Counted from the stretch's first letter, positions 44,263-62,988 are shown. The stretch: 64,000 nt of DNA from Thermodesulfobacteriota bacterium (GCA_049320885.1 JBMORA010000048.1:11396-75395), one strand, 5' to 3'. The notes: a model not told the origin generated them from the letters alone. Numbers and translations are program-made.

Positions 44263-44316
44263 CAGCCCCACCCTTCCCGGTTTCCGCCGGACTCGTTCAG
44301 AAACGGAGAATCGATC

Positions 44317-45825: not shown

Positions 45826-45836
45826 TCCCTACCGCA

Positions 45837-45866
45837 GCGGGAAAGGCGGGCCGGCGCCTTTCCCGC
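45837..45866. terminator. Hairpin between convergent genes, probable terminator
   Basis: Perfect 12-bp stem GCGGGAAAGGCG / CGCCTTTCCCGC, 6-nt loop; no long U tract. Confidence 0.6.
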
Positions 45867-45873
45867 CACTCCT

Positions 45874-46362
45874 CTAGATAAACTTCAGGTATTTGCTCTT
45901 CACGCTGATCAGTTCTTCACTGGTCAGTTTCAGGCGGCCCGCCAGGGTCTGCGCGAAAATCCGGTACAGGATGTAATACAGGGAGGCTTTCTCGGATTCG
46001 CTCAAGCGGTGCATGCTGGTATTGTCGATGGCCAGGCAGACGACATCCTCTTCCGCATATACGCTGGCGGTTCTGGAAAACTCGCCCAACAGGCTCATCT
46101 CGCCGAAAATATCTCCCCGTTTATCCAGTACGCACAACGGCCTGCCCTTCTTGGTGACGCGGATTCGGCCGAAAATCAGGATATACAGGTTGCCGTCATA
46201 TGTGCCTTCCGTGATGATCTCTTCACCGGTTTTGTATTTGCGAATTTTGCTGAAGGCCAGCAAACGCTGGAGATCATGATCGCTGAAAGGACTGAGCGTC
46301 GGGATACGCTTCAAATCCGGAATGATTTTCTGGTTTGTTCCCAATGAAATGGATTCTAGCAT
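45874..46362 (-). CDS. Cyclic nucleotide-binding domain protein (no HTH)
   Basis: IITEGTYDGNLYILIFGRIRV...GDIFGEMSLL...RTASVYA. Confidence 0.88.
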   Translation of the reverse strand: MLESISLGTNQKIIPDLKRIPTLSPFSDHDLQRLLAFSKIRKYKTGEEIITEGTYDGNLYILIFGRIRVTKKGRPLCVLDKRGDIFGEMSLLGEFSRTASVYAEEDVVCLAIDNTSMHRLSESEKASLYYILYRIFAQTLAGRLKLTSEELISVKSKYLKFI

Positions 46363-46996: not shown

Positions 46997-47025
46997 TTGA
47001 CAAACCTCCGCTTTGTCATTATAAA
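46997..47025 (+). promoter_or_regulatory. Near-consensus sigma70 promoter of the Glt/Hdr/Met operon with overlapping inverted repeat
   Basis: TTGACA-17 bp-TATAAA; TGACAAA-N7-TTTGTCA at 46998-47018. Confidence 0.7.
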
Positions 47026-47073: not shown

Positions 47074-49734
47074 ATGAACAGAATCCGACAACTATTACAT
47101 TCGAAAAAACGGTTGGTTGACGGCCTTGAGTTCCCGGACATCACCAAAGCCTCGGAAGAAGGCGGCTGCGGTGTTGTCGGCTTTTGCTGCACCAAGCCGG
47201 TTCCCGGACGTCATATCTATGAACCGTCGAGATTGATGCACAATCGCGGCAACGGCAAGGGCGGAGGGATCGCCGCGGTGGGACTCGTTCCGGAACAACT
47301 CGGCGTCGACCGCCGCGTTCTGGATGATTGTTATATGATCCATGTCGCCTTTTTGGATGCCGGCGTGCGCCCCGAATTGGAAAAAAAGTATCTTACACCG
47401 TACTTTGATGTGGAAACATCCCGCAAACTCGACACGGTGGATGACTGGACGGCCATCGCCGGACTGGAAGTGCGACCGCCGGATGTCTGGCGCTATTTTA
47501 CCCGCGTCAAGCCGCCGGTTCTGGACGCCTTCATCCAGGAAAACCGGCTTGAAACCATCTCCCGGCGCGAAGCCGAGGAAGAATTCGTCAGTCAAAACAG
47601 TTTCAAGCTGAATCAGGAATATTACGCCTCGCTGAAGAATCAAAAAGCCTTCGTGCTGTCCCACGGCCGGGATATCATGATCCTGAAGGTGGTCGGCTAT
47701 GCCGAGGCCATCGTCAAATATTATAAAATCGAGGAACTCGCCGCGCATGCCTGGATCGCGCACCAGCGTTTTCCCACCAAGGGCCGCGTATGGCACCCGG
47801 GTGGCGCCCATCCGTTTACGGCCATGAATATGGCCCTGGTCCATAACGGCGACTTTGCCAATTACCACTCCGTCACCGAATACCTGCTCCAGCGTCATAT
47901 CTATCCGCAGTTCATCACGGATACCGAAGTGTCGGCCCTGATGTTCGATCTGCTCAACCGCACCTATAAATATCCGCTTGAATACATCATCGAGGCCCTG
48001 GCGCCCACCACCGAATTGGATTTCGACCACCTGCCCCTTGAAAAGCAGCGGGTATACCGGGCGATCCAGGCCACCCATATCCACGGATCGCCCGATGGGC
48101 CCTGGTTTTTCATCATCACCCGCAATCTTCCCGAAGAGAAAAAATTCCAACTGATCGGCATCACCGACACGTCCATGTTGCGGCCCCAGGTATTCGCCTT
48201 TTGCGACGGCGACGTGCAGGTCGGGCTGATCGCCTCGGAAAAGCAGGCCATCGACGCCACCCTGCTCAGTCTGGCCCGGGATGACAGACGCATCTGCCCG
48301 GTTGCCGACCGGTATTGGAACGCCCGCGGCGGCAGCCACACGGACGGCGGCACCTTCATGTTCAATCTGGAGCCGGATGCCTCCGGCCAGATCCGGATGA
48401 CCTGCACGGATAAGTTCGGGAGCCCGGTGCTGCTGCCGAAACCGTCGGCGCCCTTTGACTTTACGAGAGAGGATGTTTTCGAGCCGGATGCGGCGATTGC
48501 CGACGAGATCAAGCGCGGCTTTGATACGGGTTCGGCGGAAACCGTCTTCGCTTATGTCCGCGACCATATGGCCGCCTGGCGTTTCGAGGATGTCAAGGCC
48601 GTATGCCGGGCCATCCGCAGACAGGCCATGGATCGCAACCATACGGCGACCGCCATCCAGGCCCTGACCCTGCTCAACGATCGGCGCTATCCCACCGGCC
48701 CCAAGAAACGGAGCCATCTCCTGCATATGATCCGCACGGAGCTGAATCGATTGTTTGACGACCTGCCGGCCATTGCGAAGAACGACAGGGATGGCGGCGC
48801 CTATCGTCGGATCGATTATCAAACCCGCCATGCCCTGCGGCCGCCCATGGGTGACGAGACCACCCTCGTCATCCATGCGGACGTCTTCCCCGCCGAAGGC
48901 GCCGAGTGTGACGCGGCGCTGCTGGTGGATGCCTATAACAAAGGCTGGCGGAGATTTATCAGCTACAATTGTTCCGGACAGCGCTATGTCGGTTGCGGAC
49001 TGGGACCGGAAACGGACGGCGTCGTCATCGACGTATACGGCAGTTCGGGCGATTATCTGGGCTCCGGCATCGACGGTTTGACCATCACGGTGCACGACAA
49101 CGCCCAGGACCAGCTGGGGCAGATCATCAAGCGCGGTAAACTGGTGGTGTACGGCGATGTTGGCCAGACCTTCCTCTACGGCGCCAAGGGCGGTGAAGTG
49201 TATGTCATGGGGAACGCGGCGGGCCGACCGCTGATCAATTCCGTGGGCCGGCCCCGGGTGGTGATCAACGGCACCTCCCTCGATTTTCTGGCCGAATCCT
49301 TCATGGCCGGCGATCCGCATCAAAACGGCGGCTTTGTGGTGTTGAACGGCATCCGGTTCGATGACGACGGCCGCATTGTTCCCCTGGACGAACCCTATCC
49401 CGGCAGCAATCTGTTCTCCCTGGCTTCCGGCGGCGCGATCTATATCCGCGATCCCCGGCAGGTATCCGTTGCCGGTCAATTGAACGGCGGCGTATTCCTG
49501 CCGTTGACCGAAAAGGATTGGGAATTGATCTTGCCCTATCTGGAAGAGAATGAACGTTTGTTCGGTATCCGGATTACGGACCTGCTGACCGTGGACGGAA
49601 AATTGTCCGCCCCGGAAAACGTGTACCGGAAGGTCGTGCCCGTTGCGGTGGCCGCGAAAATGCCCCGGCAACCGCAACCGCCGGTGAGGGCGGAGGAAAC
49701 CGAACAGGAAACCGTGGGTGATCTTTCAAATTAG
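47074..49734 (+). CDS. Glutamate synthase-like protein: class II glutamine amidotransferase domain fused to GXGXG (GltB C-terminal) domain
   Basis: EEGGCGVVG (Ntn Cys after short leader), AHQRFPT, AHPF, VHNGDFAN, DTEV; C-terminal GQRYVGCGLG...GDYLGSG...GQTFLYGAKGG beta-helix. Confidence 0.82.
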   Translation: MNRIRQLLHSKKRLVDGLEFPDITKASEEGGCGVVGFCCTKPVPGRHIYEPSRLMHNRGNGKGGGIAAVGLVPEQLGVDRRVLDDCYMIHVAFLDAGVRPELEKKYLTPYFDVETSRKLDTVDDWTAIAGLEVRPPDVWRYFTRVKPPVLDAFIQENRLETISRREAEEEFVSQNSFKLNQEYYASLKNQKAFVLSHGRDIMILKVVGYAEAIVKYYKIEELAAHAWIAHQRFPTKGRVWHPGGAHPFTAMNMALVHNGDFANYHSVTEYLLQRHIYPQFITDTEVSALMFDLLNRTYKYPLEYIIEALAPTTELDFDHLPLEKQRVYRAIQATHIHGSPDGPWFFIITRNLPEEKKFQLIGITDTSMLRPQVFAFCDGDVQVGLIASEKQAIDATLLSLARDDRRICPVADRYWNARGGSHTDGGTFMFNLEPDASGQIRMTCTDKFGSPVLLPKPSAPFDFTREDVFEPDAAIADEIKRGFDTGSAETVFAYVRDHMAAWRFEDVKAVCRAIRRQAMDRNHTATAIQALTLLNDRRYPTGPKKRSHLLHMIRTELNRLFDDLPAIAKNDRDGGAYRRIDYQTRHALRPPMGDETTLVIHADVFPAEGAECDAALLVDAYNKGWRRFISYNCSGQRYVGCGLGPETDGVVIDVYGSSGDYLGSGIDGLTITVHDNAQDQLGQIIKRGKLVVYGDVGQTFLYGAKGGEVYVMGNAAGRPLINSVGRPRVVINGTSLDFLAESFMAGDPHQNGGFVVLNGIRFDDDGRIVPLDEPYPGSNLFSLASGGAIYIRDPRQVSVAGQLNGGVFLPLTEKDWELILPYLEENERLFGIRITDLLTVDGKLSAPENVYRKVVPVAVAAKMPRQPQPPVRAEETEQETVGDLSN

Positions 49735-49761
49735 CATGGGTCAAACACGCATAGGATTGAT

Positions 49762-50331
49762 ATGACCATCAGAATCAAAAGAGGCCGATCCGCTCCGTCC
49801 CTGACAGATTCGGTCCGGGAGATCTCGGGCGTGGATCTCGGGGCCTGCTACCAGTGCCGGAAATGCTCCTGCGGTTGCACCGTAACCGGGCATGCCCAAT
49901 CCCCCCCTGCTGAAATCATCAGACGTCTGCAACTGGGCGCAGGGCATGAACTGCTCCGTAACGATCTGATCTGGACCTGCGTTTCCTGCGAAACCTGTTC
50001 TGCCCGCTGTCCCATGGGGGTCGACCTGGTGGCCGTCATGGACGCCCTGCGCGCCCTGGCCGTCGCGCAGCAAGCACCCGTCCCGGAAGGCAACGTCCCG
50101 CTGTTCAACAAGGCGTTTCTCAAGACGGTGGCCCTCTTCGGCCGGACATACGATCTGGGTCTGATGGCGGCTTATAAGATCGGCACCGCCTCCTATGGCC
50201 GGGATGCGGATAAAATCCCCCTGCTGCTCCGGAAAAAAAAAATTGCGCTGCTGCCGTCGCTGAGCCCCGGACGCCGGGCGGTAAAAAGAATTTTTCAACA
50301 AACCGGACAAAACAAGGGAAATATCAAATGA
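49762..50331 (+). CDS. hdrC: Heterodisulfide reductase subunit C-like 2x[4Fe-4S] protein
   Basis: CYQCRKCSCGC and IWTCVSCETCSARCP. Confidence 0.88.
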   Translation: MTIRIKRGRSAPSLTDSVREISGVDLGACYQCRKCSCGCTVTGHAQSPPAEIIRRLQLGAGHELLRNDLIWTCVSCETCSARCPMGVDLVAVMDALRALAVAQQAPVPEGNVPLFNKAFLKTVALFGRTYDLGLMAAYKIGTASYGRDADKIPLLLRKKKIALLPSLSPGRRAVKRIFQQTGQNKGNIK

Positions 50332-51206
50332 GATATGCCTATTATCCCGGATGTTCAGCGGAATCCTCGGCCCGGGACCTGCACGCTTCCAGTCTGGCCG
50401 TAACCCGCAAGCTGGGCATCGAGCTGAAGGAGATCCCGGGCTGGTCCTGCTGCGGCGCCACACCCGCCCACCAGACCGATCGCATCCTGGCGGCATCCCT
50501 GCCGGCCGCCAATCTGGCCAAGGCCCGGGACATGGGCCTGGACATCGTGGTGAACTGCGCCGCCTGTTACAACCGGTTGAAAATGGCCAATCACGAAATC
50601 CGGAACCATTCGGACATGCGGAAAAAAGTGGGGAAGGCCCTGGGCCGGGATTACGACGGTTCGGTCAAGGTCCGGCACCTGATGGAAGTGCTCCTCGAGG
50701 ATGTCGGCCTGCCGGAACTTGCGGGAGCGCTGCCCCATTCCCTGGGCGGGCTGAAAGTCGCCTCGTATTACGGCTGCCTGCTGGTTCGTCCCCATGAAGT
50801 CACCCGTTTCGACGATCCTGAAAATCCCCAGGCAATGGACCGGCTGGTAACGGCCATGGGCGGAGAAAGCCTGGACTGGCCTGCCAAGGTCGACTGCTGC
50901 GGCAACAGTCTGTCGCTGACGACCCAATCGAATCTGGTGGTGGATTTTTCCGACAAGATCATCCAGATGGCCAAGGCCGCGGGAGCCGAATGTATCGCCA
51001 CCGCCTGTCCCCTGTGCCAGGTCAACCTGGACCTCCGGCAGAGCGACATCCAAAAGCAAACCGGGCGGAAATACAACCTGCCTGTTTTTTACATCACCCA
51101 ACTGCTGGGGTTATGCCTGGGTCTTTCCCGGGCGGAACTCGGTCTGAACAAGCTGGTGGTTTCTTCATCACGGATTGAAAAAGCCGTGCAAGCGGCTGCG
51201 GTATAA
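50328..51206 (+). CDS. hdrB: Heterodisulfide reductase subunit B
   Basis: YAYYPGC, WSCCG, CAAC, YYGC, DCCG, ACPLC (two CCG domains). Confidence 0.92.
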   Translation: MRYAYYPGCSAESSARDLHASSLAVTRKLGIELKEIPGWSCCGATPAHQTDRILAASLPAANLAKARDMGLDIVVNCAACYNRLKMANHEIRNHSDMRKKVGKALGRDYDGSVKVRHLMEVLLEDVGLPELAGALPHSLGGLKVASYYGCLLVRPHEVTRFDDPENPQAMDRLVTAMGGESLDWPAKVDCCGNSLSLTTQSNLVVDFSDKIIQMAKAAGAECIATACPLCQVNLDLRQSDIQKQTGRKYNLPVFYITQLLGLCLGLSRAELGLNKLVVSSSRIEKAVQAAAV

Positions 51207-51227
51207 ATGGTAAGGGGCGTTGACATT

Positions 51228-54200
51228 ATGGCAAATACGGAAATGAAGAAAACCGGCGCGGTGCTGGTGCAGGGCGGCGGAATCGCGGGGGTTCAGGCCT
51301 CCCTCGATCTCGCCAATTCCGGTTTCAAGGTGTATCTCATCGAACGTTCCGCCGCCATCGGCGGCATGATGTCCCATCTGGACAAGACCTTTCCCACCGG
51401 AGATTGCGCCACGTGTATTGTTTCCCCCAAGCTGGTGGAATGCGCCCGGAATTTGAACATCGAAATCCTGACCCACGCGGAACTGGTCGGCATCGAGGGC
51501 GAGCCCGGTCATTTCACCGCCGCCGTGAGGCAGTCTCCGCGGTATGTCCGTGAAACCATCTGCAATGACTGCGGCGACTGCTATTCCGTCTGCCCGGTGG
51601 ATATCCGGGACCGGTTCAATCGGGACCTGGGAACACGCAAGGCCATCGCCAAATACTCCCCCCAGGCCGTGCCGAATATAGCCGGAATTCTCAAGCTGGG
51701 CCATGCGCCCTGTAAAACCGGATGCCCCGCCAATATCAACGTGCAGGGCTATGTCCAGCTGATCAAGAAAAAGGAATACGTCAAGGCCGTCAACCTGATC
51801 CGGGAAAGAAACCCCCTGTCCGCCATCTGCGGCCGGGTCTGCACCCATCCCTGCGAAAGCGCCTGCCGCCGCGGCAAGGTGGATGCGCCGGTGGCCATCC
51901 GGCAGTTGAAACGGTTTGCCTCGGACAAGGAAATGGAACTGCTGGCCGAAGGCAAGATCTCCCTGCCGCCGGAACAATTTCCGGCAGCGGACGCCCCGAA
52001 AATCGCGGTGATCGGCGCCGGCCCTTCCGGCCTCACGGCCGCCCAGGATCTGGCCGATCGCGGCTACGCCGTAACCATCTATGAATCATCGCCTGCGGCC
52101 GGCGGGATGCTGCGCTGGGGCATCCCGGCCTATCGGCTTCCGGTGAACGTGCTGGATCATGAGGTCGAACTGATCCGGCGCAAAGGCGTCGCCTTTGTTT
52201 ACAACTGCAAGATCGGGAAGGACATCACTTTTGATCAACTTCGCCGCGACCATGCCGCGGTCTTTGTCGGCGTCGGCGCCCAGAAAGGCGCCCCCATGAA
52301 TGTCAAGGGCGAAGACCTGGACGGAGTTGTCCAGGGGTTGGATTTCCTGCACCGGTCCGGAACGGAAGCCGACAAGCCGGCGCTTACGGGTCATGTGGTC
52401 GTTGTCGGCGGCGGGGATGTGGCCATGGATGCCGCCTGTTCCGCCAGACGGCTCGGCGCCCGAACCGTCAGCATCCTCTACCGCCGGACGGAAACGGAAT
52501 TGCCGGCCATTCAGGAAGAAATCAACCATGCCCGGGAAGAAGGCGTTCGGTTTGAATTCCTCACGACGCCGGTGGAATTCATCGGCGATGGCCAGGGCCG
52601 GCTGCAAAAAGTCAAATGCATCCGCATGCAACTGGCCGAGCCCGATGAATCCGGAAGGCGCCTGCCGGTTCCCGTGGAAGGCTCCGCGTTTGAGATGGCG
52701 GCCGATACGGTGGTCATCGCCATCGGCAGCCGGCCGGATCCGGCCCTGGCGACCATGGCGCCGGATCTGCCCTTTGACCGCCAGGGTACTATCGTTGCGG
52801 ATGAGCATTGCCTTACGGCCCTGCCGGGTGTTTTTGCCGGCGGGGATATCGTCACCGGCCCGGCCACCGTCATCCAGGCGGTTGCCGCGGGCAAACGCGC
52901 GGCCGAATCCATTGACCGCTATGTCCGCGGGGTGGCTGCCGCGACACCGCGTTTCCAGGACAGTCTGAACCCGGTTCCGGAGGAACTCCTGCCCACCGGC
53001 AAGGGCATCGAGAAAAAAGCCCGCGTCCTGGCAAGGGAACTGCCGGTTGCCCGGCGGATTACCAATTTTGCGGAAATCGAAGCCAGTTTTTCCGAGGAGC
53101 AAGCCATTGCGGAAACGGAACGCTGCCTGAATTGCGCCCTTTGCTCCGAATGCGGCGAATGTGTGGAGGCCTGCGAGAAAAAGGCCATCGACCATGCCAT
53201 GGCGGAGAAAACCATCGAGCTGGCCGTGGGTGCGGTGATTCTGGCCCCCGGTTTTCAGGAGTTCGACGCGGCAACCAAAGGGGAATATGGCTTCGGCCGC
53301 CATGCCAACGTGCTCACCAGTGTGCAGTTCGAGCGCATGCTGTCGGCGGCCGGTCCGTTTCACGGCCATGTGGTGCGCCGTTCCGACGGCCGGGAAGCCA
53401 GGCGCATTGCTTTTATCCAGTGCGTGGGGTCGCGGGACGAAAGCTGCGGCAACGGGTATTGCTCGTCCATCTGCTGCATGGCCGCCACCAAACAGGCCCT
53501 GATCGCCAGCGAGCATGTCGGCGGGCTTACCGCGAAAATCTTTTATATGGATATCCGCGCTTTTGGCAAAGGGTTTGACCAGTATTACGAACGCGCCAGA
53601 AGTCAGGAAGGCATCCAATATATCAAGAGCATGCCCTCCCGGGTGGTGGAGCTGCCCGGCACCAAAGATCTGCTGCTGCGGTATATCAACGAACACCAGG
53701 AAACCATCGAAGAGACCTTCGACCTGGTGGTGTTGTCCGTGGGGCTGGAGCCCAAGAAATCGGTCTCCGGCGCCATGGCGGCCCTGGGCATCGATTTGAA
53801 TGAATACGGCTTCTGCGCCACGAGCCGTCTTTCCCCGCTTTCCACGTCGCGGCCGGGCGTATTCGTGGCCGGCGCCTTCCAGGAGCCCAAGGATATTCCC
53901 GAAACCGTGACCCAGGCCGGCGCCGCGGCCTCCATGGCCATGGAGCTGCTCTCCGGTTCCCGCAATACGCTGGTTGCCAGAAAAGACTACCCGCTGGAGC
54001 ATGACACCACGGATGAGGAGCCGCGCATCGGCGTGTTTGTCTGCCATTGCGGCACCAACATCGCCGCCACCATCGATGTGGAACAGGTAACCCGGGCCGT
54101 AACCCATGACCCCCAGGTGATTCTGGCCACCCATTCCATGTACGCCTGTTCGGACGCCAGCCTGTCTGAAATCAAGGCGGCCATTGCACGGCACCGGCTG

Positions 54201-55697
54201 AACCGCGTCGTGGTGGCCTCGTGCACCCCCAGGACCCACGAACCGCTCTTCCGGGAAACCCTGCGCGAGGCCGGACTGAATCCGTATCTCTTTGACCTGT
54301 CGAATATCCGGGATCAATGTTCCTGGGTGCACTCCGCCGAGCCCGAGGCGGCAACGAAAAAAGCCATCGAACTGGTGCGCATGTCCATTGCCCGGGCGCG
54401 GCTGCTGGCTCCCCTCTCGAATGAGGCCCTGGCCATCAACCAGGACGGCCTGGTAATGGGGGGCGGCCTGAGCGGCATGACCGCCGCGCTCTCCCTGGCG
54501 GACCAGGGGTTCAAGGTGCATCTGGTCGAGCGCGAAGGAGAGCTCGGCGGGCATCTCCGTGAAATCCACGGCACGCTTGAACAGGATGATGTCGCCGCTT
54601 TTCTGGGAGACCTCGTGAAACGGGTGAAGACGCATCCCCGCATTCAGCTCCATCTGCAATCCAGGGTTACCGGGATTGCCGGCCATGTCGGGAAATTCGA
54701 TATCGCGTTTGCAACAAACGAGCAAACGGTTCACGTCCCCTGCGGTGCGGTGGTGGTCGCCACGGGCGCCGACCGGGCGGAGACATCCGAATTTCTCCAC
54801 CGGGAATCCGACCAGGTGATCACCCAGGATGAACTTGAAAAACGACTGCACGACAATACGTTCGACGGCGCCGGCAGGAATATCGTCATGATCCAATGCG
54901 TGGGGTCGCGCAATAAAACCCGACCCTACTGCAGCCGGCTCTGCTGCTCCATGGCCATCAAGAACGCCCTGGCTGTCAAAAGAAAATACCCGGACGCCGC
55001 CGTCTTTGTGCTGTACCGCGATATCCGCACCTATGGATTCCGGGAAAAATTCTACAAGGAAGCCCGACTGGCCGGTGTTGTGTTCATCCGCTACCATGAA
55101 GACCATCCGCCGGCGGTATCCCGGGAGAACGGTCTTCTGGTGACCATCGACAGCCCGGATTTTCCCGAATCCATCGAAATCGAGGCGGACCAGGTTGTCT
55201 TGAGCACCGGCATCACCCCTGCCGAGGACAACCGGCGGATTGCGGATATGCTGAAAGTGCCGCTGAACACCAATGGATTTTACGTGGAAGCGCATTTGAA
55301 ACTGCGGCCGGTGGATTTCGCCAACGAAGGCATCTTCCTGTGCGGCCTGGCCCATTCGCCCAAATTCATGGATGAGAATATCTCCCAGGCACGAGCCGCG
55401 GCGGCCAGGGCCGCCACGGTGCTGTCCAAGACCCATCTCGAACTGGGCGCCCAGGTTTCCCGGGTGGATCAGAACAAGTGCATCTCATGCATGACCTGCG
55501 TGCATTCCTGTCCCTACGGCGCGCCGTTCGTGAACAAGGACCGCAAGGCCGAGATAGCGGCCGCCAAATGCATGGGCTGCGGCATCTGCGCTTCGGAATG
55601 TCCGGCCCGGGCCATCCAGTTGGCTCATTTTGAAGCGAAGCAATTCACGATCATGCTGGATGATCTGTTTCAATGCATGGAAGCCATGGTCAATTAA
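51228..55697 (+). CDS. hdrA: Large HdrA-like flavoprotein with inserted GltD-like NAD(P)H oxidoreductase module (HdrL-type)
   Basis: GGGIAG...LDKTFPTGDCATC; insert APCKTGCP...ICGRVCTHPCESAC...GAGPSG...GGGDVAMD...FAGGD; IQCVGSR...CSSICC; second module RIGVFVCHCG...ASCTPRTHE...IQCVGSR...CSRLCC; C-terminal ferredoxin. Confidence 0.88.
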   Translation: MANTEMKKTGAVLVQGGGIAGVQASLDLANSGFKVYLIERSAAIGGMMSHLDKTFPTGDCATCIVSPKLVECARNLNIEILTHAELVGIEGEPGHFTAAVRQSPRYVRETICNDCGDCYSVCPVDIRDRFNRDLGTRKAIAKYSPQAVPNIAGILKLGHAPCKTGCPANINVQGYVQLIKKKEYVKAVNLIRERNPLSAICGRVCTHPCESACRRGKVDAPVAIRQLKRFASDKEMELLAEGKISLPPEQFPAADAPKIAVIGAGPSGLTAAQDLADRGYAVTIYESSPAAGGMLRWGIPAYRLPVNVLDHEVELIRRKGVAFVYNCKIGKDITFDQLRRDHAAVFVGVGAQKGAPMNVKGEDLDGVVQGLDFLHRSGTEADKPALTGHVVVVGGGDVAMDAACSARRLGARTVSILYRRTETELPAIQEEINHAREEGVRFEFLTTPVEFIGDGQGRLQKVKCIRMQLAEPDESGRRLPVPVEGSAFEMAADTVVIAIGSRPDPALATMAPDLPFDRQGTIVADEHCLTALPGVFAGGDIVTGPATVIQAVAAGKRAAESIDRYVRGVAAATPRFQDSLNPVPEELLPTGKGIEKKARVLARELPVARRITNFAEIEASFSEEQAIAETERCLNCALCSECGECVEACEKKAIDHAMAEKTIELAVGAVILAPGFQEFDAATKGEYGFGRHANVLTSVQFERMLSAAGPFHGHVVRRSDGREARRIAFIQCVGSRDESCGNGYCSSICCMAATKQALIASEHVGGLTAKIFYMDIRAFGKGFDQYYERARSQEGIQYIKSMPSRVVELPGTKDLLLRYINEHQETIEETFDLVVLSVGLEPKKSVSGAMAALGIDLNEYGFCATSRLSPLSTSRPGVFVAGAFQEPKDIPETVTQAGAAASMAMELLSGSRNTLVARKDYPLEHDTTDEEPRIGVFVCHCGTNIAATIDVEQVTRAVTHDPQVILATHSMYACSDASLSEIKAAIARHRLNRVVVASCTPRTHEPLFRETLREAGLNPYLFDLSNIRDQCSWVHSAEPEAATKKAIELVRMSIARARLLAPLSNEALAINQDGLVMGGGLSGMTAALSLADQGFKVHLVEREGELGGHLREIHGTLEQDDVAAFLGDLVKRVKTHPRIQLHLQSRVTGIAGHVGKFDIAFATNEQTVHVPCGAVVVATGADRAETSEFLHRESDQVITQDELEKRLHDNTFDGAGRNIVMIQCVGSRNKTRPYCSRLCCSMAIKNALAVKRKYPDAAVFVLYRDIRTYGFREKFYKEARLAGVVFIRYHEDHPPAVSRENGLLVTIDSPDFPESIEIEADQVVLSTGITPAEDNRRIADMLKVPLNTNGFYVEAHLKLRPVDFANEGIFLCGLAHSPKFMDENISQARAAAARAATVLSKTHLELGAQVSRVDQNKCISCMTCVHSCPYGAPFVNKDRKAEIAAAKCMGCGICASECPARAIQLAHFEAKQFTIMLDDLFQCMEAMVN

Positions 55698-55744
55698 CGG
55701 GTCGAACATGATGATTGCGAAATTTACGTCGAATTAAAGAGAAA

Positions 55745-56197
55745 ATGATGAACACCAACAATTTTGAACCCAAGATCGTCGCCTTCTGCTGCCATTATTG
55801 AGCGTATTCATCCGCGGACCTGTCAGGTTCCATGCGACTTCAGTACCCAACCAATATCCGCATCATCCGCACGCCCTGCACCGGCAAGCTGGAGGTCGAA
55901 TACTTTCTGCGGGCCTTTGAAAACGGCGCCGACGCCGTGCTGGTGGCCGGATGCGAGGAAGGCAGCTGCCATTTCAGCGAAGGCAACCTTATGGCGAAGC
56001 GCCGGGTGAACCATACCCGACGACTTCTGTCGGAAGCCGGGTTTGACCAGGAGCGGCTGCGCATGGTCAATATCGGCGCAGCAGACGCCACCATTTTTGT
56101 CGGGATGGTCAAGGACATGATCGAATCCGTCCGCGCCCTCGGCCCCAATCCCATACGCCGCACCAAGCCATCACCGAAACAGGAGATCCATCCATGA
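55745..56197 (+). CDS. mvhD: MvhD [2Fe-2S] subunit, selenocysteine-containing
   Basis: Reading through TGA at 55799-55801 gives MMNTNNFEPKIVAFCCHYUAYSSADLSGSMRLQYPTNIRIIRTPCTGK...GADAVLVAGCEEGSCHF; ORF track only shows the part after the TGA. Confidence 0.88.
55802..55836 (+). promoter_or_regulatory. Putative bacterial SECIS element
   Basis: Lower stem CGTAT(55803-07)/ATGCG(55832-36); upper stem GGACCT/AGGTTC with loop GTC whose G lies 21 nt after the UGA. Confidence 0.6.
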
Positions 56198-56862
56198 TCG
56201 TAGCGGAAAGAAAAAGCATTCCCGAACTTGTCGACATCCTGAAAGGCCATCATAAAATCCTGGTGCTGGGCTGCGGCACCTGCGTTACGGTTTGTCTTGC
56301 CGGCGGCGAACGGGAAGTCAGCATCATTTCCTCGACCCTGCGCATCGCCTCGAATCTCGGGAATCACGGTTTCGAGATTTCAGAACTCACCATCGAGCGC
56401 CAGTGCGACAATGTATTTATCGAGGCCGCCGCGGACGTCATTGCCGAATGCGATGCCGTTCTCTCGCTGGGTTGCGGCGCCGGGGTTCAGGCCATCGCGG
56501 AACGGTATCGTGAAAAGCCCGTCTACGCCGGCCTCAACACGGCTTTTATCGGCATTCTGGAAGAAAGAGGTCTCTGGACCGAGAAATGCGCCGCCTGCGG
56601 GTCCTGCGTATTGCACCAGTACGGCGGCATCTGCCCGATCACGCGCTGCGCCAAGCATATGCTGAACGGACCCTGCGGCGGTTCCCGGGAGGATCGTTGC
56701 GAGGTCCGGCCGGACCGGCCCTGCGGCTGGCAGCTGATCTACCGGCGGTTGAAAGGCATCGGACAGCTCGACCGGCTGAAAACCATCGCGCCGCCCAAGA
56801 ACTGGGAGCCGAGCCTGGACGGCGGATGCCGGGTAATCGTCCGGGAGGACCATCGAATTTGA
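56194..56862 (+). CDS. metV: Methylenetetrahydrofolate reductase small subunit MetV (Cys-rich)
   Basis: GCGTCVTVCLAGG, ERQCD, GCGAGVQ, CAACGSC...GICPITRCAKHMLNGPCGG...CEV...CGW. Confidence 0.88.
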   Translation: MIVAERKSIPELVDILKGHHKILVLGCGTCVTVCLAGGEREVSIISSTLRIASNLGNHGFEISELTIERQCDNVFIEAAADVIAECDAVLSLGCGAGVQAIAERYREKPVYAGLNTAFIGILEERGLWTEKCAACGSCVLHQYGGICPITRCAKHMLNGPCGGSREDRCEVRPDRPCGWQLIYRRLKGIGQLDRLKTIAPPKNWEPSLDGGCRVIVREDHRI

Positions 56863-56894
56863 CAACGGTATGCACCAACGCCGAGGCGGATGTG

Positions 56895-57293
56895 ATGAAC
56901 CATGATCCATTGAAAATATATGTATTTTACTGCGCCAACAGCCTGGATGCCCGGGCTTTGAGACAAGGCGGCGGCGCCATGCGGCAGGAAGAAGTGAAGA
57001 CCATCAGCCTGCCGTGTTCCGGAAAGGTGAACCTGCTCTATCTGCTGAAGGCCTTTGAAAAAGGCGCCGACGGCGTACTGCTGGTAACCTGCAAACCGGG
57101 TGATTGCCAGTTCCTGGAAGGCAACCTGCGCGCGCGGAAACGTTCCGAGGCAGTGGACGCCATGCTTGCCGAAATAGGTTTCGGCAAAGGCCGGATGCGG
57201 ATCGTCCATCCGGACGGCCTGGATGATATAACTCGGATAATGGCTGAAATCGACAGTCTCAGCCGATTCATACGGGATTCGTCAGTTCGGTAA
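56895..57293 (+). CDS. Second MvhD-like [2Fe-2S] protein
   Basis: VFYCANS, LPCSGKV, AFEKGADGVLLVTCKPGDCQFLEGN. Confidence 0.82.
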   Translation: MNHDPLKIYVFYCANSLDARALRQGGGAMRQEEVKTISLPCSGKVNLLYLLKAFEKGADGVLLVTCKPGDCQFLEGNLRARKRSEAVDAMLAEIGFGKGRMRIVHPDGLDDITRIMAEIDSLSRFIRDSSVR

Positions 57294-57332
57294 TTCCCGA
57301 ATTGCGCTTTAGCCCTGGTGGGAGAGGATGAA

Positions 57333-58238
57333 ATGCGATCAGAGAGTACCCTTGCAAACAAGATAAAAGCCGGAGAATTCATCGTTACGGCCGAGTTGCT
57401 GCCCCGGGCCAGCGCGGACGGCAAAACCGTGGAGGAGTCGACCGGTTTTTTCGACAGCCGGCTGACGGCGGTGAATGTGGCGGACAATCCCCATGGACCG
57501 GTCATGTCGAGCCTTGCGGCATCCGTGATCCTGAGCCGGGCCGGCCGGGAGCCGATCTATCAGGTGGTCACCCGGGACCGCAACCGCATCGCCTTGCAGT
57601 CCGATCTGTTGGGGGCGGCCGCGCTGGGCATTCGCAATATTCTATGTCTTTCGGGCCATCATCAGGCCCTGACGGACAGCCGTGAATCCGCCAACGTCTA
57701 TGATATCGACTCGATTCAGCTGGTCGCCGCCGTCCGGAAGATGTGCGCCGACGGCATCCTGCTGGACGGAACCAGGCTCCAGGGCGAATTCAGCGCCCTG
57801 GTGGGCGCCGTGGTCAGTCCCGATATGAAGCCCATGGAACTCAATCTCATCCGCTTGGCCAAAAAGGTGGAAGCCGGGGCCCGGTTCATTCAAACCCAGG
57901 CCGTATTCGACCTGGAACAATTCGATCAATGGCTCTCGGCCGCCCGGGACCTGGGGATCACGCGACAAACCGCCATCCTGGCGGGCGTATTCCCAATTTC
58001 CAGCGCCGAGGAAGCGGAACATCTGCGCGCCAAATATATGGACCTGTCCATTCCAGACAGCGTCATCGCCCGACTGAAAGCCGCGGGGGATGAGGCGGCC
58101 CAGAAAAAGGAAGGCCTTTCGATCTGCGTGGAGACAATCCAAAAAATCAAAACCGCGGACGGCGTAAGAGGAATCCATCTTCTTTCCGGCGGCCGGGAAA
58201 ATCGTGTGCCGGAAATCATGGCCGCGGCCGGATTATAA
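57333..58238 (+). CDS. metF: Methylenetetrahydrofolate reductase MetF
   Basis: FIVTAELLP, AVNVADNP, RDRNRIALQSDLLGA, KKVEAGARFIQTQAVFD, GIHL. Confidence 0.9.
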   Translation: MRSESTLANKIKAGEFIVTAELLPRASADGKTVEESTGFFDSRLTAVNVADNPHGPVMSSLAASVILSRAGREPIYQVVTRDRNRIALQSDLLGAAALGIRNILCLSGHHQALTDSRESANVYDIDSIQLVAAVRKMCADGILLDGTRLQGEFSALVGAVVSPDMKPMELNLIRLAKKVEAGARFIQTQAVFDLEQFDQWLSAARDLGITRQTAILAGVFPISSAEEAEHLRAKYMDLSIPDSVIARLKAAGDEAAQKKEGLSICVETIQKIKTADGVRGIHLLSGGRENRVPEIMAAAGL

Positions 58239-58252
58239 GACAGGAAAAGAAC

Positions 58253-59674
58253 ATGCCGGAAAAATACCATATCAAAACGACCCCGGTTCCACCCCGCCTG
58301 CCGCGGATCGGGAAACACGGCATCGTGGATTGGCGGGAAGATTGCGCCAGATGCCATAACTGTGTCAAAAAGGCCTGCGTCTACGACCGCCACCGGCAGG
58401 AGGCGGAGTATATCCGGAATCTCAAATACGCGGATTTCCTTTTTTTCGAATGCATGGGCTGCTTTTCATGCGTGCAGAACTGCACCAAGGACCTGCTGTG
58501 CCTGACCGTTAATTCCGAATATGAAAAACTGGGCAACGCCTACTGGAAACCGGAAATCATTCATACCACCTGGCAGCAGGCGGAAACTGGGGCGGTGCCG
58601 GTTTCAGGAGCGGGGTACCGGGGAAAATTCGCCGGCCGCGGTTTTGACGCCATGTGGACGGACATGTCGGAAATCGTCCGGCCCACCCGCGACGGCATCC
58701 ATGGCCGCGAATATATCAGCACCTCCGTGGACATCGGCCGGAAACCGTCCTACCTGGAGTTTACGGAAAGTCTGGCCGCCGCCAATCCGCCGGCCATCGT
58801 GGACATCCCCATGCCGCTGATCATCGATATGAATCCCGCCGAGTACACCCTGCCCCGGCTTGAATCCTATATCCTGGAAGCCGTCCGGACCACGGAGCTG
58901 ATCGCCGTCATCGATTCCGCCAAATGGCCCGGCGCCCTGAACGTAGACCAGATGCGGAATGCCGGGCGATATCTGCGGCACATCTCCTTTTATCTGAATC
59001 CGGACGGGCCGGAAATACCGCAAGAGATATTACGTCAAACCAGGATTGTTGAAATACCGGCCGCGGACAACGCTCTTGAGCGCATGCAGGAACTGAAGGC
59101 CGCCCTTCCCGGAATCATCGTATCCATCCGGGTCAACCTGGACGCCGGGGGAGTGGATCGCGCCATCGGCCTGGGCGAAACCGGAGCGGAACTGCTGCAT
59201 GTGGTCGCGGATTTCAACGGCAATGAAATCGGCGTGAAACAGCCCCGTTTCATCAAGGATATGATCCGGGAAATCCATCGGGCCCTCATCCGGGGCGGCA
59301 AGCGGGATGAAGTCACCCTGATCGCCGGCTCCGGTATCGCCCTGCCGGAACATATGGCCAAGGCCCTGCTTTGCGGGGCTGATCTGGTGTCCACCTATCT
59401 GCCGTTGATGATCGCCCTGGAATGCCGTCTCTGCGAGGCGTGCCGACCCGGGCTGGTATGTCCCGCCCGGCTCGAAACCATTGATTTTGCTTACGGCGCC
59501 GGGCGCATGCGCAATCTGATCGCCGCCTGGCACTTGCAGTTGATTGAATTGATGGGCGCCATGGGCATGCGGGAAGCCCGCCGCCTGCGGGGCGATGTCG
59601 GGCGCGCCATGTTTTTTGAGGAGCTGGAGGAGGAGATTTTTGGAACGCTTTTCGGTTCAAGAAAAAGAGCTTAA
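58253..59674 (+). CDS. Ferredoxin-fused glutamate synthase FMN-domain paralog (divergent)
   Basis: CARCHNC...C and CMGCFSCVQNC; LIAGSGI...AKALLCGAD; ALECRLCEAC...VCP; ELMGAMG; lacks GMSFG and QGAKPG motifs. Confidence 0.7.
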   Translation: MPEKYHIKTTPVPPRLPRIGKHGIVDWREDCARCHNCVKKACVYDRHRQEAEYIRNLKYADFLFFECMGCFSCVQNCTKDLLCLTVNSEYEKLGNAYWKPEIIHTTWQQAETGAVPVSGAGYRGKFAGRGFDAMWTDMSEIVRPTRDGIHGREYISTSVDIGRKPSYLEFTESLAAANPPAIVDIPMPLIIDMNPAEYTLPRLESYILEAVRTTELIAVIDSAKWPGALNVDQMRNAGRYLRHISFYLNPDGPEIPQEILRQTRIVEIPAADNALERMQELKAALPGIIVSIRVNLDAGGVDRAIGLGETGAELLHVVADFNGNEIGVKQPRFIKDMIREIHRALIRGGKRDEVTLIAGSGIALPEHMAKALLCGADLVSTYLPLMIALECRLCEACRPGLVCPARLETIDFAYGAGRMRNLIAAWHLQLIELMGAMGMREARRLRGDVGRAMFFEELEEEIFGTLFGSRKRA

Positions 59675-59681
59675 GGATATC

Positions 59682-61229
59682 CTGCCGGAAAACACGCTGA
59701 AAACCCGCGTGCCGCAGGTTGACATCCGTCGCGAGATCAAACCGGCGCCTTCGCGCTACCGCAATGAGATTGCCAAATTCATCATCCATCGCAGCGAGGA
59801 TTGCATCCGCTGCGGCAAGTGCGCGGAGCTGTGCCCCCATGGGGTGCATGTGTTGAAGCCGGGCTACAAGTATTTCGCCAGACCCCAGAGCCATTTATGC
59901 ACGGGCCGGGCCTGTGAGAAGACCGATCATTTCTGCGTCGGCCAATGCCCGCAAAACGCCCTGCGCATGGTGGAAAACCCCATGATCAAGGCTCTGGGGG
60001 ATTACCGCTGGACGGCGGATATGCTGCTTTCCACCTGGAAAATGGCCGAAACCGGGGCCCCGCCCCCGGCAGAATATGAATATGATTACCTCGCGGGCCA
60101 ATCCGGCGGCGGTTTTGACCGGATCCGTTTTCGATTCCCCGAAAAACCGCCCGTGGAACTGCGGGACGACGAGATCGACACCAGCATCCCCCTGAACCGC
60201 CGCAACGACGGCCGCCCCCAGCTCCGGATCGACGTCCCCTGGTATGGCGGCGGCATGTCCTTCGGTTCGGTGAGCAACGCCACCCAGCTTTCCAAGGTGC
60301 GCGCCGCCGCGGCCTGGAACACCTTCTCCTGTTCCGGGGAAGGCGGCTACATGGAACGCATGCGGCCCTATGACGACCATATGATCACCCAGGTGGCCAC
60401 CGGCCTTTTCGGCGTGCGCGAGGAAACCATTCAGCGCGTGCCCATCATCGAATTCAAGTACGCCCAGGGCGCCAAACCCGGTCTCGGCGGGCATCTGCTG
60501 GGGGACAAGAACACCCCGGCCGTGGCCAAAATACGGGAAGCCGTGGTGGGCATCTCCCTCTTCTCCCCGTTTCCCTTCCACAGCGTGTATTCCATTGAAG
60601 ACCACATGAAGCACCTGGACTGGATCAAGCATGTCAACCGGCGCGCCCTGCTGTCCACCAAGGTTTCCACGCCCACGGACGTGGATATGGTGGCCGTGGG
60701 CAGTTATTCCGCCGGCACCCATATCATCCATCTGGACGGCGGCTACGGCGGCACGGGCGCGGCCCCGGACATCGCCAAAAAGAATATCGCCATGCCCATC
60801 GAGTACGCCATCGCCAAGGTCCACAAATTTCTGGTGGACGAGGGCGCCCGGGAAAAGGTCACCCTGATCGCGAGCGGCGGGATCCGCACGGCCCATGATA
60901 TCGGCAAGGCCATCGCCCTGGGCGCCGACGGCGTCGTGGTGGGAACATCCGAGCTGATCGCCCTCGGCTGCGTCCGCTGCTCGCGCTGCTCGGCCGGCCG
61001 CGGCTGCCCCCGGGGCATCGCCACCACCGATCCGGGGCTGGTCACCCAGATGGACCTCGAATGGGGTACCCAGCGGATCATCAATCTCTACAACGCCTGG
61101 CGCGTGGATTTGATCACCATCCTGAAACGCTTCGGCATGCGCAGCGTGCGCGAACTGGTGGGCCGTTCCGACCTGTTGATGCATCTTGATTTTACGAATG
61201 ACGTGAAAAAGAGGTCCGGGTCCGCTTAA
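59682..61229 (+). CDS. Ferredoxin-fused FMN-binding glutamate synthase domain protein (archaeal GltS-type)
   Basis: CIRCGKCAELCP; GGGMSFGS, SGEGG, QVATGLFGV, EFKYAQGAKPGLGGHL, DGGYGGTGAAP, ASGGIRT, ALGCVRCSRC...GCPRGIATTD; start uncertain (CTG 59682, GTG 59709, or overlapping ATG 59595). Confidence 0.87.
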   Translation: MPENTLKTRVPQVDIRREIKPAPSRYRNEIAKFIIHRSEDCIRCGKCAELCPHGVHVLKPGYKYFARPQSHLCTGRACEKTDHFCVGQCPQNALRMVENPMIKALGDYRWTADMLLSTWKMAETGAPPPAEYEYDYLAGQSGGGFDRIRFRFPEKPPVELRDDEIDTSIPLNRRNDGRPQLRIDVPWYGGGMSFGSVSNATQLSKVRAAAAWNTFSCSGEGGYMERMRPYDDHMITQVATGLFGVREETIQRVPIIEFKYAQGAKPGLGGHLLGDKNTPAVAKIREAVVGISLFSPFPFHSVYSIEDHMKHLDWIKHVNRRALLSTKVSTPTDVDMVAVGSYSAGTHIIHLDGGYGGTGAAPDIAKKNIAMPIEYAIAKVHKFLVDEGAREKVTLIASGGIRTAHDIGKAIALGADGVVVGTSELIALGCVRCSRCSAGRGCPRGIATTDPGLVTQMDLEWGTQRIINLYNAWRVDLITILKRFGMRSVRELVGRSDLLMHLDFTNDVKKRSGSA

Positions 61230-61332: not shown

Positions 61333-61536
61333 ATTAGGAATGACCCTTTACAAGTTAGTGTCCATCCAGAAATACTAGTTTTTAACCCTGGAGGCAGACC
61401 CAAAAAGCTACTCAATTGACATAGTGAAGATTTTTTCAGCATAAACCGATATCGGAAAAAGAAATTGCTTCAATTTGTCATCATACGGACGCACCTATCC
61501 CATGTATCGGTAGATTTTCCTTCGACCGGCCTGTTT

Positions 61537-62155
61537 TTAATGAGCCGGCAATTTGGCTCGCGCAAGGGTCAGAAGGTTTGCCGCCACAATAGAGGACCAG
61601 ACATACGATTTGAATGCTTCCCAACCTTTCCAATTGCAGCGTGTAAGTCCCATGCAACGTTTCAACCACGATATTCCGGATTCAATACCTGCGCGAAAAC
61701 AGCGCAACCGATGATACACATTCTCGCTGCGGCACATATCGGTTTCATTGAGACCACGTTTTTTGGCAAAACAAACATCCTTGATATTTCGATCCTTTGC
61801 AAGTTTCAGATTGTTTTTGGAGGCGAATCCGCCGTCGAAAGATACTTTGAGCGGATAGCGATTATAAATTTCTTTCTGGCGGTCGAGCATCGAAATCGCC
61901 AAATCCACATCGGCCGGATTGCCGCGCTCGATTACACAGTCCAGAATCAAGTTGGATGCCCCACCGGTAAGGCAAATCTTGTGGCCGTAAATCGTATCAC
62001 GCCGATCCTTGACAATGATGTCGGTATGCGGCTCAAAAATAGAGACAACTTTTTCCTAGGCAGGGACCTTCTCAGCCATTACCACCCGCCGATGTGTCTG
62101 ATTGACGACTCTTTCGGCAAGCAGGGCATACTGCTTGATTTGATTCAACAAGGCA
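61537..62155 (-). pseudogene. Truncated DDE transposase (ISNCY-like), C-terminal part with in-frame amber stop
   Basis: Manual extension gives ...RVVNQTHRRV...KVPA*EKVVSIFEPHTDIIVKDRRDTIYGHK...FDGGF...FRAGIESGISWLKR; TAG at 62056-62058; N-terminus missing; GTGTCCATCCAGAAAT near 61358 may be the terminal IR. Confidence 0.8.
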
Positions 62156-62160
62156 TATTT

Positions 62161-62439
62161 GCATTTGTTGCGGACATTATATCGCTGCGTGTACACACCA
62201 TCGATTTACCTCAAACATCGTGACAAATTCATTTTAGGCATTTTTGCGGGAATATGGTAAAGCGACGGCAGAAGGTAGAATGCGGCGATCCGGATCCCGA
62301 ACATATCCGTCGTTTTCGTGAGCAAATCCTGAAAGTCGACGCAATCCTTGTCATTCCTGAAAAGGATTTGCCCCCGCCTGGCTCGGCTCATTACTTGATG
62401 CCAAGCATCCGGATATTCAATTCGCAATGGTCTTGACGG
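62161..62439 (-). pseudogene. REP-associated tyrosine transposase (RAYT/Y1) N-terminal fragment
   Basis: SRPLRIEYPDAWHQVMSRARRG...IAAFYLLPSLYHI...NLSRCLR then frameshift to IDGVYTQRYNVRNK; start codon lost, HUH motif degenerate. Confidence 0.75.
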
Positions 62440-62499: not shown

Positions 62500-62766
62500 C
62501 CATAAACCGCGCTTTTCACCCTCGAAAAGCGTTTCTAAGCATGAAAAACAGCCCCGTTTTTCCATTCATTTCATATTAAGTTTAGCAGTTATCTCGGTCC
62601 GACTATCCGGCGGACTGTCCGGCCTTCTCAACTGCCTGATAACATACTATTATCTCAGCAAAATAGGCTGCACGGATGGTTTTTCGTCACAAGCGATTGA
62701 TCTGGCAGCGCAAATGATATAAATAATATCTTGACTATACGAGGATCAAAGTCGAGGAGGGACCAT

Positions 62767-62988
62767 ATGACCGCAAGAGCCGAACAAGTGCTGGCCGAAG
62801 CGCTGATGCTGCCGCCTCATGAGAGGGCGCAGTTGGCGGAACAGCTTTTTACCAGCCTGGATATATCGGATGAAGAAATAGAGCGGTTGTGGGCCGAGGA
62901 AGCCGAAAGCCGCATTGATGCGTATGAACGAGGCGAGATAAAAACCGTATCCGCAGAGGACGTTTTCAACGATATCCGCCGCCGATGA
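62767..62988 (+). CDS. Addiction-module antitoxin (TIGR02574-like)
   Basis: RBS GAGGAGG; ALMLPPHERAQLAEQLFTSL...WAEEAESRIDAYERGE. Confidence 0.88.
   Translation: MTARAEQVLAEALMLPPHERAQLAEQLFTSLDISDEEIERLWAEEAESRIDAYERGEIKTVSAEDVFNDIRRR

Follow-up and report, generated by a model that had tools for sequence, protein, structure and literature searches.

A widespread gene cassette that apparently combines a split glutamate synthase with Hdr-type electron input and a degenerate MetF

The stretch of DNA analysed here, referred to as the window, comprises 64,000 nucleotides (nt) from a Thermodesulfobacteriota bacterium (GCA_049320885.1, JBMORA010000048.1:11396-75395). Positions 47074-61229 are occupied by a cassette of ten open reading frames (ORFs), all on the plus strand, in which the parts of a glutamate synthase (GOGAT), an enzyme of nitrogen incorporation into amino acids, stand together with hdr, mvhD, metV and metF genes, i.e. 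with redox proteins familiar from methanogens and acetogens. The preliminary description of the window had listed ten co-oriented, tightly spaced genes with these labels, and this was confirmed by the ORFs and by Pfam/NCBIfam, which matched each assigned gene label; the spacing between the cassette genes is -4 to 50 nt. The features are as follows.

46997..47025, plus strand: sigma70-like promoter TTGACA-17-TATAAA, a consensus match only, without an ANTAR leader
47074..49734, plus strand: GAT, a class II glutamine amidotransferase (GATase; propeptide, catalytic Cys32) fused to a GXGXG beta-helix (PF13522, PF01493)
49762..50331, plus strand: hdrC, 2x[4Fe-4S] (Pfam/NCBIfam)
50328..51206, plus strand: hdrB, two CCG domains with complete cluster cysteines (Pfam)
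51207 or 51228..55697, plus strand: hdrL, a large hdrA with two HdrA flavin adenine dinucleotide (FAD) modules and a GltD/NfnB-like NAD(P)H insert (Pfam/NCBIfam, alignment)
55748..56197, plus strand: mvhD1, a [2Fe-2S] adaptor with predicted selenocysteine, TGA at 55799-55801 (Pfam, codon comparison)
56194..56862, plus strand: metV, iron-sulphur (Fe-S)/Zn partner of MetF, highly conserved (PF12225)
56895..57293, plus strand: mvhD2, a [2Fe-2S] adaptor and proposed connection to the Glt module (Pfam)
57333..58238, plus strand: metF-like flavoprotein gene, His109 at the Asp120 position (alignment to Escherichia coli MetF)
58253..59674, plus strand: F1, a GltB2 paralogue, catalytically dead by sequence, with three Cys cluster motifs retained (alignment, fold prediction)
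59595..61229, plus strand: F2, ferredoxin plus flavin mononucleotide (FMN) synthase subunit, annotated from ATG, probable CTG start at 59682 (Pfam, alignment)

The cassette is real and widespread, has apparently not been described so far, and seems to represent a glutamate synthase with Hdr-type input and a degenerate MetF. In a scan based on F1, 282 of 354 candidate stretches were confirmed as relatives, and the best 80 were kept; it should be added that these loci were chosen by F1 similarity and are interrelated, hence they are non-independent samples. Represented among them are Desulfobacterota, Planctomycetota, Verrucomicrobiota, Bacteroidota, Chloroflexota and Spirochaetota. The gene order of the window (order A, GAT-hdrC-hdrB-hdrL-mvhD1-metV-mvhD2-metF-F1-F2) was found in 12 of the 80 and its circular permutation (order B, mvhD2-metF-F1-F2-GAT-hdrC-hdrB-hdrL-mvhD1-metV) in 57, ten loci being too short for assignment and one rearranged. 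Twenty longer order-B regions were taken, and metV followed mvhD1 in all 15 that reached past mvhD1. The Glt genes thus wrap around the Hdr/Met genes only in the lineage of the window; elsewhere the trio of GAT, F1 and F2 is contiguous. The linkage of the trio with hdr and met genes, for which a synteny search had been proposed, proved to be conserved in six or more phyla. The nearest relatives of the cassette belong to Desulfobacterales, and within the host family its occurrence is patchy (F1 in 4/16 genomes, F2-type matches in 6/16). In four loci (L025, L064, L065 and L078) the cassette is broken or truncated, with F2 shortened or hdrL missing although the DNA goes on, which may be due to decay or misassembly.

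GAT, F1 and F2 are predicted to form a single glutamine-dependent glutamate synthase, and we consider it very likely that the trio carries out GOGAT chemistry. The glutaminase residues of GAT, located by reference to E. coli GltB (C32, R58, R232, N258-G259 and D283), were present in 49/49 orthologues, and its GXGXG beta-helix matched PF01493 with an E-value of 8e-14. When F2 was aligned to the Azospirillum brasilense enzyme (2VDC/1EA0), each of the key FMN/2-oxoglutarate and Fe-S residues (MSxG, KxxQGAKPG, Arg, DGxxGGT and the cluster cysteines) was found in 66/66 sequences. The best scores of F2 were obtained with the clostridial split GltB2 (239 bits), followed by E. coli GltB (171) and MgsC (149), and the best references for GAT and GXGXG were GltB1 and GltB3 of Monoglobus (clostridial). 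The phylogeny that had been suggested as a check placed the F2 family in a clade of its own, apart from GltB, split GltB2 and MgsC, with an approximate likelihood-ratio (SH-aLRT) support of 95 in a quick tree with long outgroup branches.

F1 and F2 had both been described as ferredoxin-FMN GltB-domain genes; this held for F2, which has the FMN site, but not for F1, which has none. F1 has lost the FMN and 2-oxoglutarate motifs and has kept the three cysteine cluster motifs (75-76/76), and is, by its sequence, a catalytically dead GltB2 paralogue that retains its Fe-S clusters. Its predicted fold is an FMN-type barrel (pLDDT 74.8), and hhalign gave a probability of 54% to the FMN domain of GltB vs 0.4% to the GltB central domain. 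Orthology of F1 to this central domain was rejected on the latter value; since the fold search matched only generic FMN-type barrels, the resemblance is regarded as analogy. In GltB, the ammonia tunnel is lined by the central domain, which has the form of a truncated barrel (PMC8097209), and by analogy F1 may fill this role despite non-orthology. Furthermore, natural F1-F2 and F1-F2-GAT fusions exist among the 150 top-ranking cluster representatives (clusters at 50%). Seven long F1-F2-GAT fusions were scanned with Pfam, and an FAD-oxidase domain was found in six of them (P0141, P0144, P0149, P0158, P0161 and P0179; not in P0169); the chains in which a GlcD/LdhD-like FAD-linked oxidase with Fe-S domains is fused to the trio (e.g. 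P0141, P0144, P0149, P0158, P0179) are 2500-3400 amino acids (aa) long.

Among known enzymes, the closest likeness is with the split GltB1/GltB2/GltB3 synthases of archaea and clostridia, including the five-gene set of Monoglobus, with which the cassette shares the GATase, ferredoxin-FMN and GXGXG parts, the PG[IL]GGHL loop and the four-Cys cluster motif. It differs from them by the GAT-GXGXG fusion, the additional dead F1 and the separate F2 clade, and also in the electron input, which is Hdr/MvhD/MetVF in the cassette and a small ferredoxin plus an FAD oxidoreductase in Monoglobus. With GltBD of A. brasilense (1EA0/2VDC/6S6S; PMC8097209) it has in common the catalytic motifs, a GltD-like module (here inside HdrL) and a dead barrel beside the FMN barrel. 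However, GltBD consists of a single alpha chain of ~1500 aa and a separate GltD, whereas the cassette distributes four domains over three chains, has Leu for the Glu978-type residue and an F1 without homology to the central domain; judged by these sequence features, its synthase is not canonical GltBD. A GATase_2 match was likewise not found in the host genome.

The Hdr part was described previously as containing a large hdrA. HdrA is indeed present, but the gene is of the HdrL type: a GltD-like insert with 246 bits to E. coli GltD spans approximately aa 160-575. The NAD(P)H dinucleotide motif of the insert was kept in 48/48 full-length HdrL sequences, being YRR in the window and the other order-A cassettes and LE in most order-B ones, which we take to be a preference for NADP and NAD, respectively. 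Both HdrA halves have an equivalent of Lys409 of 5ODC (K762 in 48/48 and K1252 in 46/48); this lysine forms a hydrogen bond with the FAD at which bifurcation is proposed (PMC6405883). A fusion of HdrA with the glutamate synthase small subunit, followed by an mvhD that often encodes selenocysteine, is likewise known as HdrL in Desulfobacterium autotrophicum; its neighbours, in the part of that source cited here, are dsr or other redox genes and not parts of the glutamate synthase large subunit (PMC2702500). The 11 cluster cysteines of HdrB are present in 57/57 orthologues. DsrC was considered as a general partner of HdrBC and rejected, as dsrA occurs in only 14/51 carrier genomes.

The assignment of selenocysteine to mvhD1 in the preliminary description stood as well. 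Codon 18 of the gene is a TGA in frame and is followed by a small hairpin, two tRNA-SeC were called in the genome, and the corresponding codon in 38 scored orthologues is TGA in 11, TGC in 16 and TGT in 11, so that selenocysteine in MvhD1 is supported. In MvhD2, cysteines C13, C41, C66 and C71 were found in 50/50 orthologues. The host genome (5.6 Mb, 98% complete, with dsrA and acetyl-CoA synthase) carries many additional hdrA/hdrL-mvhD loci on contigs C1, C14, C16, C27, C28, C43 and C63; HdrL-MvhD-MetVF modules without Glt genes are present, as are other MetVF loci with Asp120.

The genes hdrCBA-mvhD-metVF were expected to encode a methylene-tetrahydrofolate (THF) reductase of the kind proposed for Moorella thermoacetica. 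The gene set and the Fe-S ligands fit this expectation: the one-operon arrangement hdrC-hdrB-hdrA-mvhD-metV-metF and a large HdrA containing two FAD modules of the HdrA type are shared with the Moorella MetFV-HdrABC-MvhD system (PMC5861303, PMC5736913, PMC6085437). The active site of MetF does not. Position 120 (E. coli numbering) is His109 in the window copy, in which the equivalents of Glu28 and Gln183 are present, and Asp120 was found in none of 74 cassette orthologues, where the position is taken by Tyr (41), His (15), Phe (14), Thr (2), Arg (1) or Asn (1). Glu28 is retained in all 74, whereas Gln183 is retained in 48 and replaced in 26; the flavin-side residues are fixed like Glu28 while position 120 is mostly aromatic. 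The 119 best database homologues of the window MetF also have His or Tyr at 120, never Asp. As controls, the 30 best-scoring other MetFs from carrier genomes all have Asp120, as do five of six aligned MetF paralogues of the host, the sixth having Glu. In a quick tree, the MetFs of the cassettes grouped as a clade with an SH-aLRT support of 100, on a long branch beside MetFs of the HdrL-MvhD-MetVF type. It should be added that the host has at least six further metF-like genes, two of them very divergent (C63c and C25), both without Gln183 and one with Glu at 120.

In methylene-THF reductases (MTHFR), Asp120 is invariant, folate-binding and catalytically essential (PMC9900621); the Asp120Asn variant of E. 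coli MetF retains 0.3% of kcat (PMC11094777), and it is still present in an MTHFR whose reaction is the oxidation of methyl-THF (PMC11868366). Because this residue is missing, it is improbable that the MetF of the window works as a methylene-THF reductase of the Moorella type. The GltD-like HdrA insert, the second MvhD and the three Glt genes further set the cassette apart from the Moorella system, and as regards the Wood-Ljungdahl pathway, acetyl-CoA synthase is present in the host but was not found in half of the carriers tested (found in 25/50, these being incomplete metagenome-assembled genomes). Clusters of hdr-mvhD-metVF are described without Glt genes in the passages cited (PMC5736913, PMC7325909, PMC9012536, PMC6085437). 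No publication describing the cassette was found in a literature search that covered mostly open-access texts and no supplements, so that a mention may exist; in agreement with the preliminary description, no characterised system of this composition was found in the literature searched.

More distant relatives were collected from metagenomes by a fusion-alignment search, which confirmed at least 583 of them, and 80 loci were analysed. The gene ahead of F1 was an FAD-oxidase in 29, metF after metV in 18, metF after mvhD in 12, mvhD alone in nine and metF at the contig edge in five; in seven there was none or the contig ended. Where more than 2.5 kb followed GAT, hdrCB came next in 8/8 loci of the mvhD-metF type, 2/6 of the mvhD-only, 0/6 of the metV-metF and 0/10 of the FAD-oxidase type. 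On the F2 tree the upstream-module labels switch 10 times (the minimum being 3), while the order within the trio is constant. Since the synthase stays constant and the redox modules in front of it vary, we infer that Hdr/MvhD/MetVF is an exchangeable electron supply. Whether the architecture is MvhD-only, MetVF or Hdr, an mvhD is found upstream of the trio. The unfused FAD-linked oxidases (GlcD/LdhD-like, with Fe-S domains) stand ahead of the trio in loci within L163-L242, e.g. L170, L182 and L194, and nine loci (L187, L190, L193, L195, L208, L213, L220, L223 and L229) are hdr-free six-gene sets, mvhD-metV-metF-F1-F2-GAT.

The surroundings of the cassette point to nitrogen metabolism. Recurring neighbours in the 80 loci of the first scan were a NifA-like regulator (14), amt (11), a class I amidotransferase (9), P-II (7) and canonical gltD (4). 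In the extended regions, for which 90 of 155 ORFs were scanned and many of which had no nitrogen genes, the genes after metV were glnA-carA-guaA-carB in L146, a two-component pair with amt-P-II-glnA-carA in L148, the glutamine-dependent NAD synthase gene nadE in L147 and, directly adjoining, gltB-gltD in L156. Moreover, an ANTAR leader (two hexaloop hairpins, A1/G4, with overlapping terminator) precedes the first gene in four of six distinct order-A relatives and is degenerate in a fifth; this motif mostly precedes nitrogen genes, glutamate synthases included (PMC3369931). An ANTAR protein is encoded in the host genome, which also contains a single ANTAR leader element. At C9:102245-104806 (L254) of the host, a GAF-ANTAR regulator gene stands ahead of an ANTAR leader, and next comes the gene for a divergent FMN protein of 557 aa related to glutamate synthase; a gene similar to the latter adjoins the cassette in 4/80 loci. 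Among 59 order-B leaders, NrpR and ANTAR patterns were found in none, and the two sigma54 patterns in 0 and 2 vs 0.97 expected, i.e. without enrichment, one degenerate site being seen by eye (L029). A link to nitrogen fixation was rejected, as nifH was not found in the host genome. The GmaS model scored above cut-off in 1/51 carriers and not in the host genome. Of the two chemistries offered earlier, glutamate/glutamine or methylamine, the former is favoured by the glutamate synthase residues, the nitrogen neighbours (amt, P-II, glnA, gltBD, ANTAR leaders) and the absence of GmaS.

As regards expression, the sigma70 promoter of the preliminary description is present as a match to consensus and was not listed by the consensus scanner because its last base is A; TTGACA occurs at the corresponding position in 5/6 order-A relatives, and the cassette would be transcribed from it as a single unit. 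A palindrome across the -35 box was not conserved in relatives. Rfam gave no match in the window and none at gathering score in six leaders, and the terminator scan of the window found 15 candidates vs 22.6 in shuffled sequence, i.e. no excess over chance. The annotated overlap of F1 and F2 (80 nt) is probably spurious, because conservation among F2 orthologues begins at a Leu coded by CTG or TTG in most of them, at least 20 having no ATG within 45 codons; the true start of F2 is probably CTG 59682, seven bases past the F1 stop. Directly downstream (61465-62427 and 62731-63296) are a DDE transposase remnant and a short ORF that may be part of a transposase, together with an addiction-module antitoxin and a ParE-type toxin, which is consistent with mobility of a patchily distributed cassette. 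Upstream, 39373-46362 contains nuoL/M/N-like ORFs (judged by eye), a gene for a thiolase-like protein and, on the opposite strand, one for a cyclic nucleotide-binding protein; none of these recurs at the cassette in relatives.

Taken together, functional coupling of the trio to the Hdr/Met module is likely, and we lean, with modest confidence, towards an NAD(P)H-fed, Hdr-coupled split glutamate synthase that has its own electron-supply module and is possibly bifurcating. The sequences show residues, fusions and gene context; the wiring of the subunits, their electron donor and a possible bifurcation are deduced from these. In such an enzyme, glutamine would be hydrolysed at GAT and the ammonia would reach 2-oxoglutarate at F2. 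NAD(P)H would reduce the GltD-like FAD of HdrL, and electrons would pass via an HdrA-type FAD to MvhD2 and on to the ferredoxin Fe-S chain of F1/F2, so that the FMN of F2 could reduce iminoglutarate. The MetVF arm, derived from an HdrL-MvhD-MetVF module, would have lost all or most of its folate catalysis and persist as a flavin/Fe-S relay or scaffold.

The 2-oxoglutarate/glutamine couple accepts electrons at approximately -60 mV. With this acceptor value, electron transfer from NAD(P)H to 2-oxoglutarate/glutamine was computed to yield ~-50 kJ/mol and reduction of ferredoxin to require +19 to +35 kJ/mol; the ~50 kJ/mol released in the glutamate step could therefore cover the cost of reducing ferredoxin by bifurcation. 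For the remaining potentials, NAD(P)H was set at -320 mV, methylene-THF at -200 mV and ferredoxin at -420 mV (PMC5861303). Ferredoxin reduction by bifurcation at this complex is nonetheless to be taken as tentative, being possible but doubtful. Somewhat less probable again is the broader proposal of a new class of flavin-based bifurcation with glutamate synthesis as its high-potential branch, in which the complex would split the electrons of NAD(P)H (or of methyl-THF in Asp120-bearing relatives) between 2-oxoglutarate/glutamine and ferredoxin or NAD(P)+, while the folate reductase decays into a pseudo-enzyme relay.

Several observations weigh against the NAD(P)H-fed synthase. The scheme assigns no role or substrate to HdrBC. 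The GltD insert also occurs in Glt-free HdrL paralogues of the host and is missing from one cassette (L032); as a general feature of HdrL, it is not an adaptation to GOGAT. Fusions of Glt with Hdr or Met proteins were absent from the 150 representatives. In the PGLGG loop of F2, the Glu of canonical PGEGG is replaced by Leu in 66/66 sequences, clostridial GltB2 having Ile there. The ANTAR leader is absent from the window cassette and from its closest relative. That the cassette is the only GOGAT of its host was rejected on finding a second split GOGAT at C33:83533-88712 (L253; GATase, ferredoxin-FMN protein with a PGDGG loop, GXGXG-GltD fusion). FMN genes similar to the subunit of this second GOGAT are found in most members of the host family, the host has two glutamate dehydrogenases, and 22/50 carriers have canonical GltB; given these other enzymes, the cassette does not have to serve as the only GOGAT and would be an addition rather than a replacement. 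Finally, MetV and the remainder of MetF remain well conserved, and Asp120 is present in 30/34 MetFs of the more distant metagenome loci (8/10 with hdr, 9/9 without). As distant cassettes keep it, folate chemistry belongs to the history of the family: the loss of Asp120 appears confined to the branch of the window and a few others, and the family as a whole would have recruited a working MetVF.

These last data bear on the alternative that the synthase is driven by methyl-THF, which MetVF would oxidise at -200 mV, the electrons reaching F1/F2 through MvhD without a split or after one at HdrA, where the other branch would lead uphill to NAD(P)+. For the cassette as found here this is unlikely; it is more likely in the Asp120-bearing relatives than in the window. 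The nine hdr-free six-gene sets, whose MetFs all have Asp120 and Gln183 and fall into at least two MetF clades, are the best candidates for such an enzyme, although they may draw on an HdrA encoded elsewhere. The FAD-oxidase variant suggests another substrate-level donor, Glu28 is kept in all 74 cassette MetFs, and transfer from methyl-THF to 2-oxoglutarate/glutamine would be downhill by ~-27 kJ/mol, that to NAD(P)+ costing ~+23 kJ/mol (potentials from PMC5861303, with the above acceptor value). In the lineage of the window, however, Asp120, which even the oxidative-direction MTHFR keeps (PMC11868366), is lost throughout, Gln183 is replaced in 26/74, and acetyl-CoA synthase occurs in just half of the carriers.

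It is less probable still that one nitrogen-regulated operon holds two independent enzymes, a ferredoxin-dependent split GOGAT and an HdrL-HdrBC-MvhD-MetVF complex whose sole output would be reduced ferredoxin or methyl groups for general use in the cell. The lack of Glt-Hdr and Glt-Met fusions, the Glt-free HdrL-MvhD-MetVF modules of the host and the occurrence of the trio without hdr would be in line with this, but there are two MvhD copies, one of which is kept beside F1 in three architectures, the interleaved order survives permutation and spans phyla, and the long branch of the cassette MetFs is as expected for a specialised partner. A slightly poorer prospect is an altered MetF with a non-folate substrate, the turnover of which, or of an HdrB thiol/disulfide, would be coupled to glutamate synthesis or to the amination of another 2-oxoacid. 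It would explain a mostly aromatic position 120 beside a fixed flavin side and Glu28, and HdrB cysteines that are invariant though few carriers have dsrA; yet Thr, Arg, Asn, Gln and Ala also occur at position 120, as if the constraint on it were relaxed, none of the recurring neighbour genes is specific to a substrate, and the F2 residues fit 2-oxoglutarate binding. An N-methylglutamate synthase channelling methylamine carbon to folate can be dismissed as most improbable, for although MgsABC (in Paracoccus yeei, at a locus with GmaS) has the same GATase, GXGXG and FMN parts split among genes and the cassette sets them beside a metF-like gene, GmaS is nearly absent from carriers, no N-methylglutamate dehydrogenase is among the recurring neighbours, and F2 scores higher with GltB2 than with MgsC, stands in a separate clade and has the ferredoxin domain, cluster cysteines and KxxQGAKPG Lys that MgsC lacks.

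The cassette has implications for annotation as well as for physiology. In metagenomes, hdrABC-mvhD-metVF is often taken as evidence of Moorella-type acetogenesis; for this cassette the label is probably wrong, and the Asp120 position offers a one-residue check on such annotation. The cassette also supplies a candidate partner for MetVF-Hdr modules, for which a second acceptor is still sought (PMC5861303). GOGAT running on NAD(P)H normally wastes ~50 kJ/mol, and if glutamate synthesis does serve as the high-potential branch of a bifurcating complex, nitrogen assimilation would also conserve energy. If instead the synthase is driven by methyl-THF, the family would use weak donors that anaerobes otherwise oxidise with difficulty. 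A widespread anaerobic glutamate synthase with varied inputs would thus join the reactions that are coupled to bifurcation or to the disposal of weak reductants.

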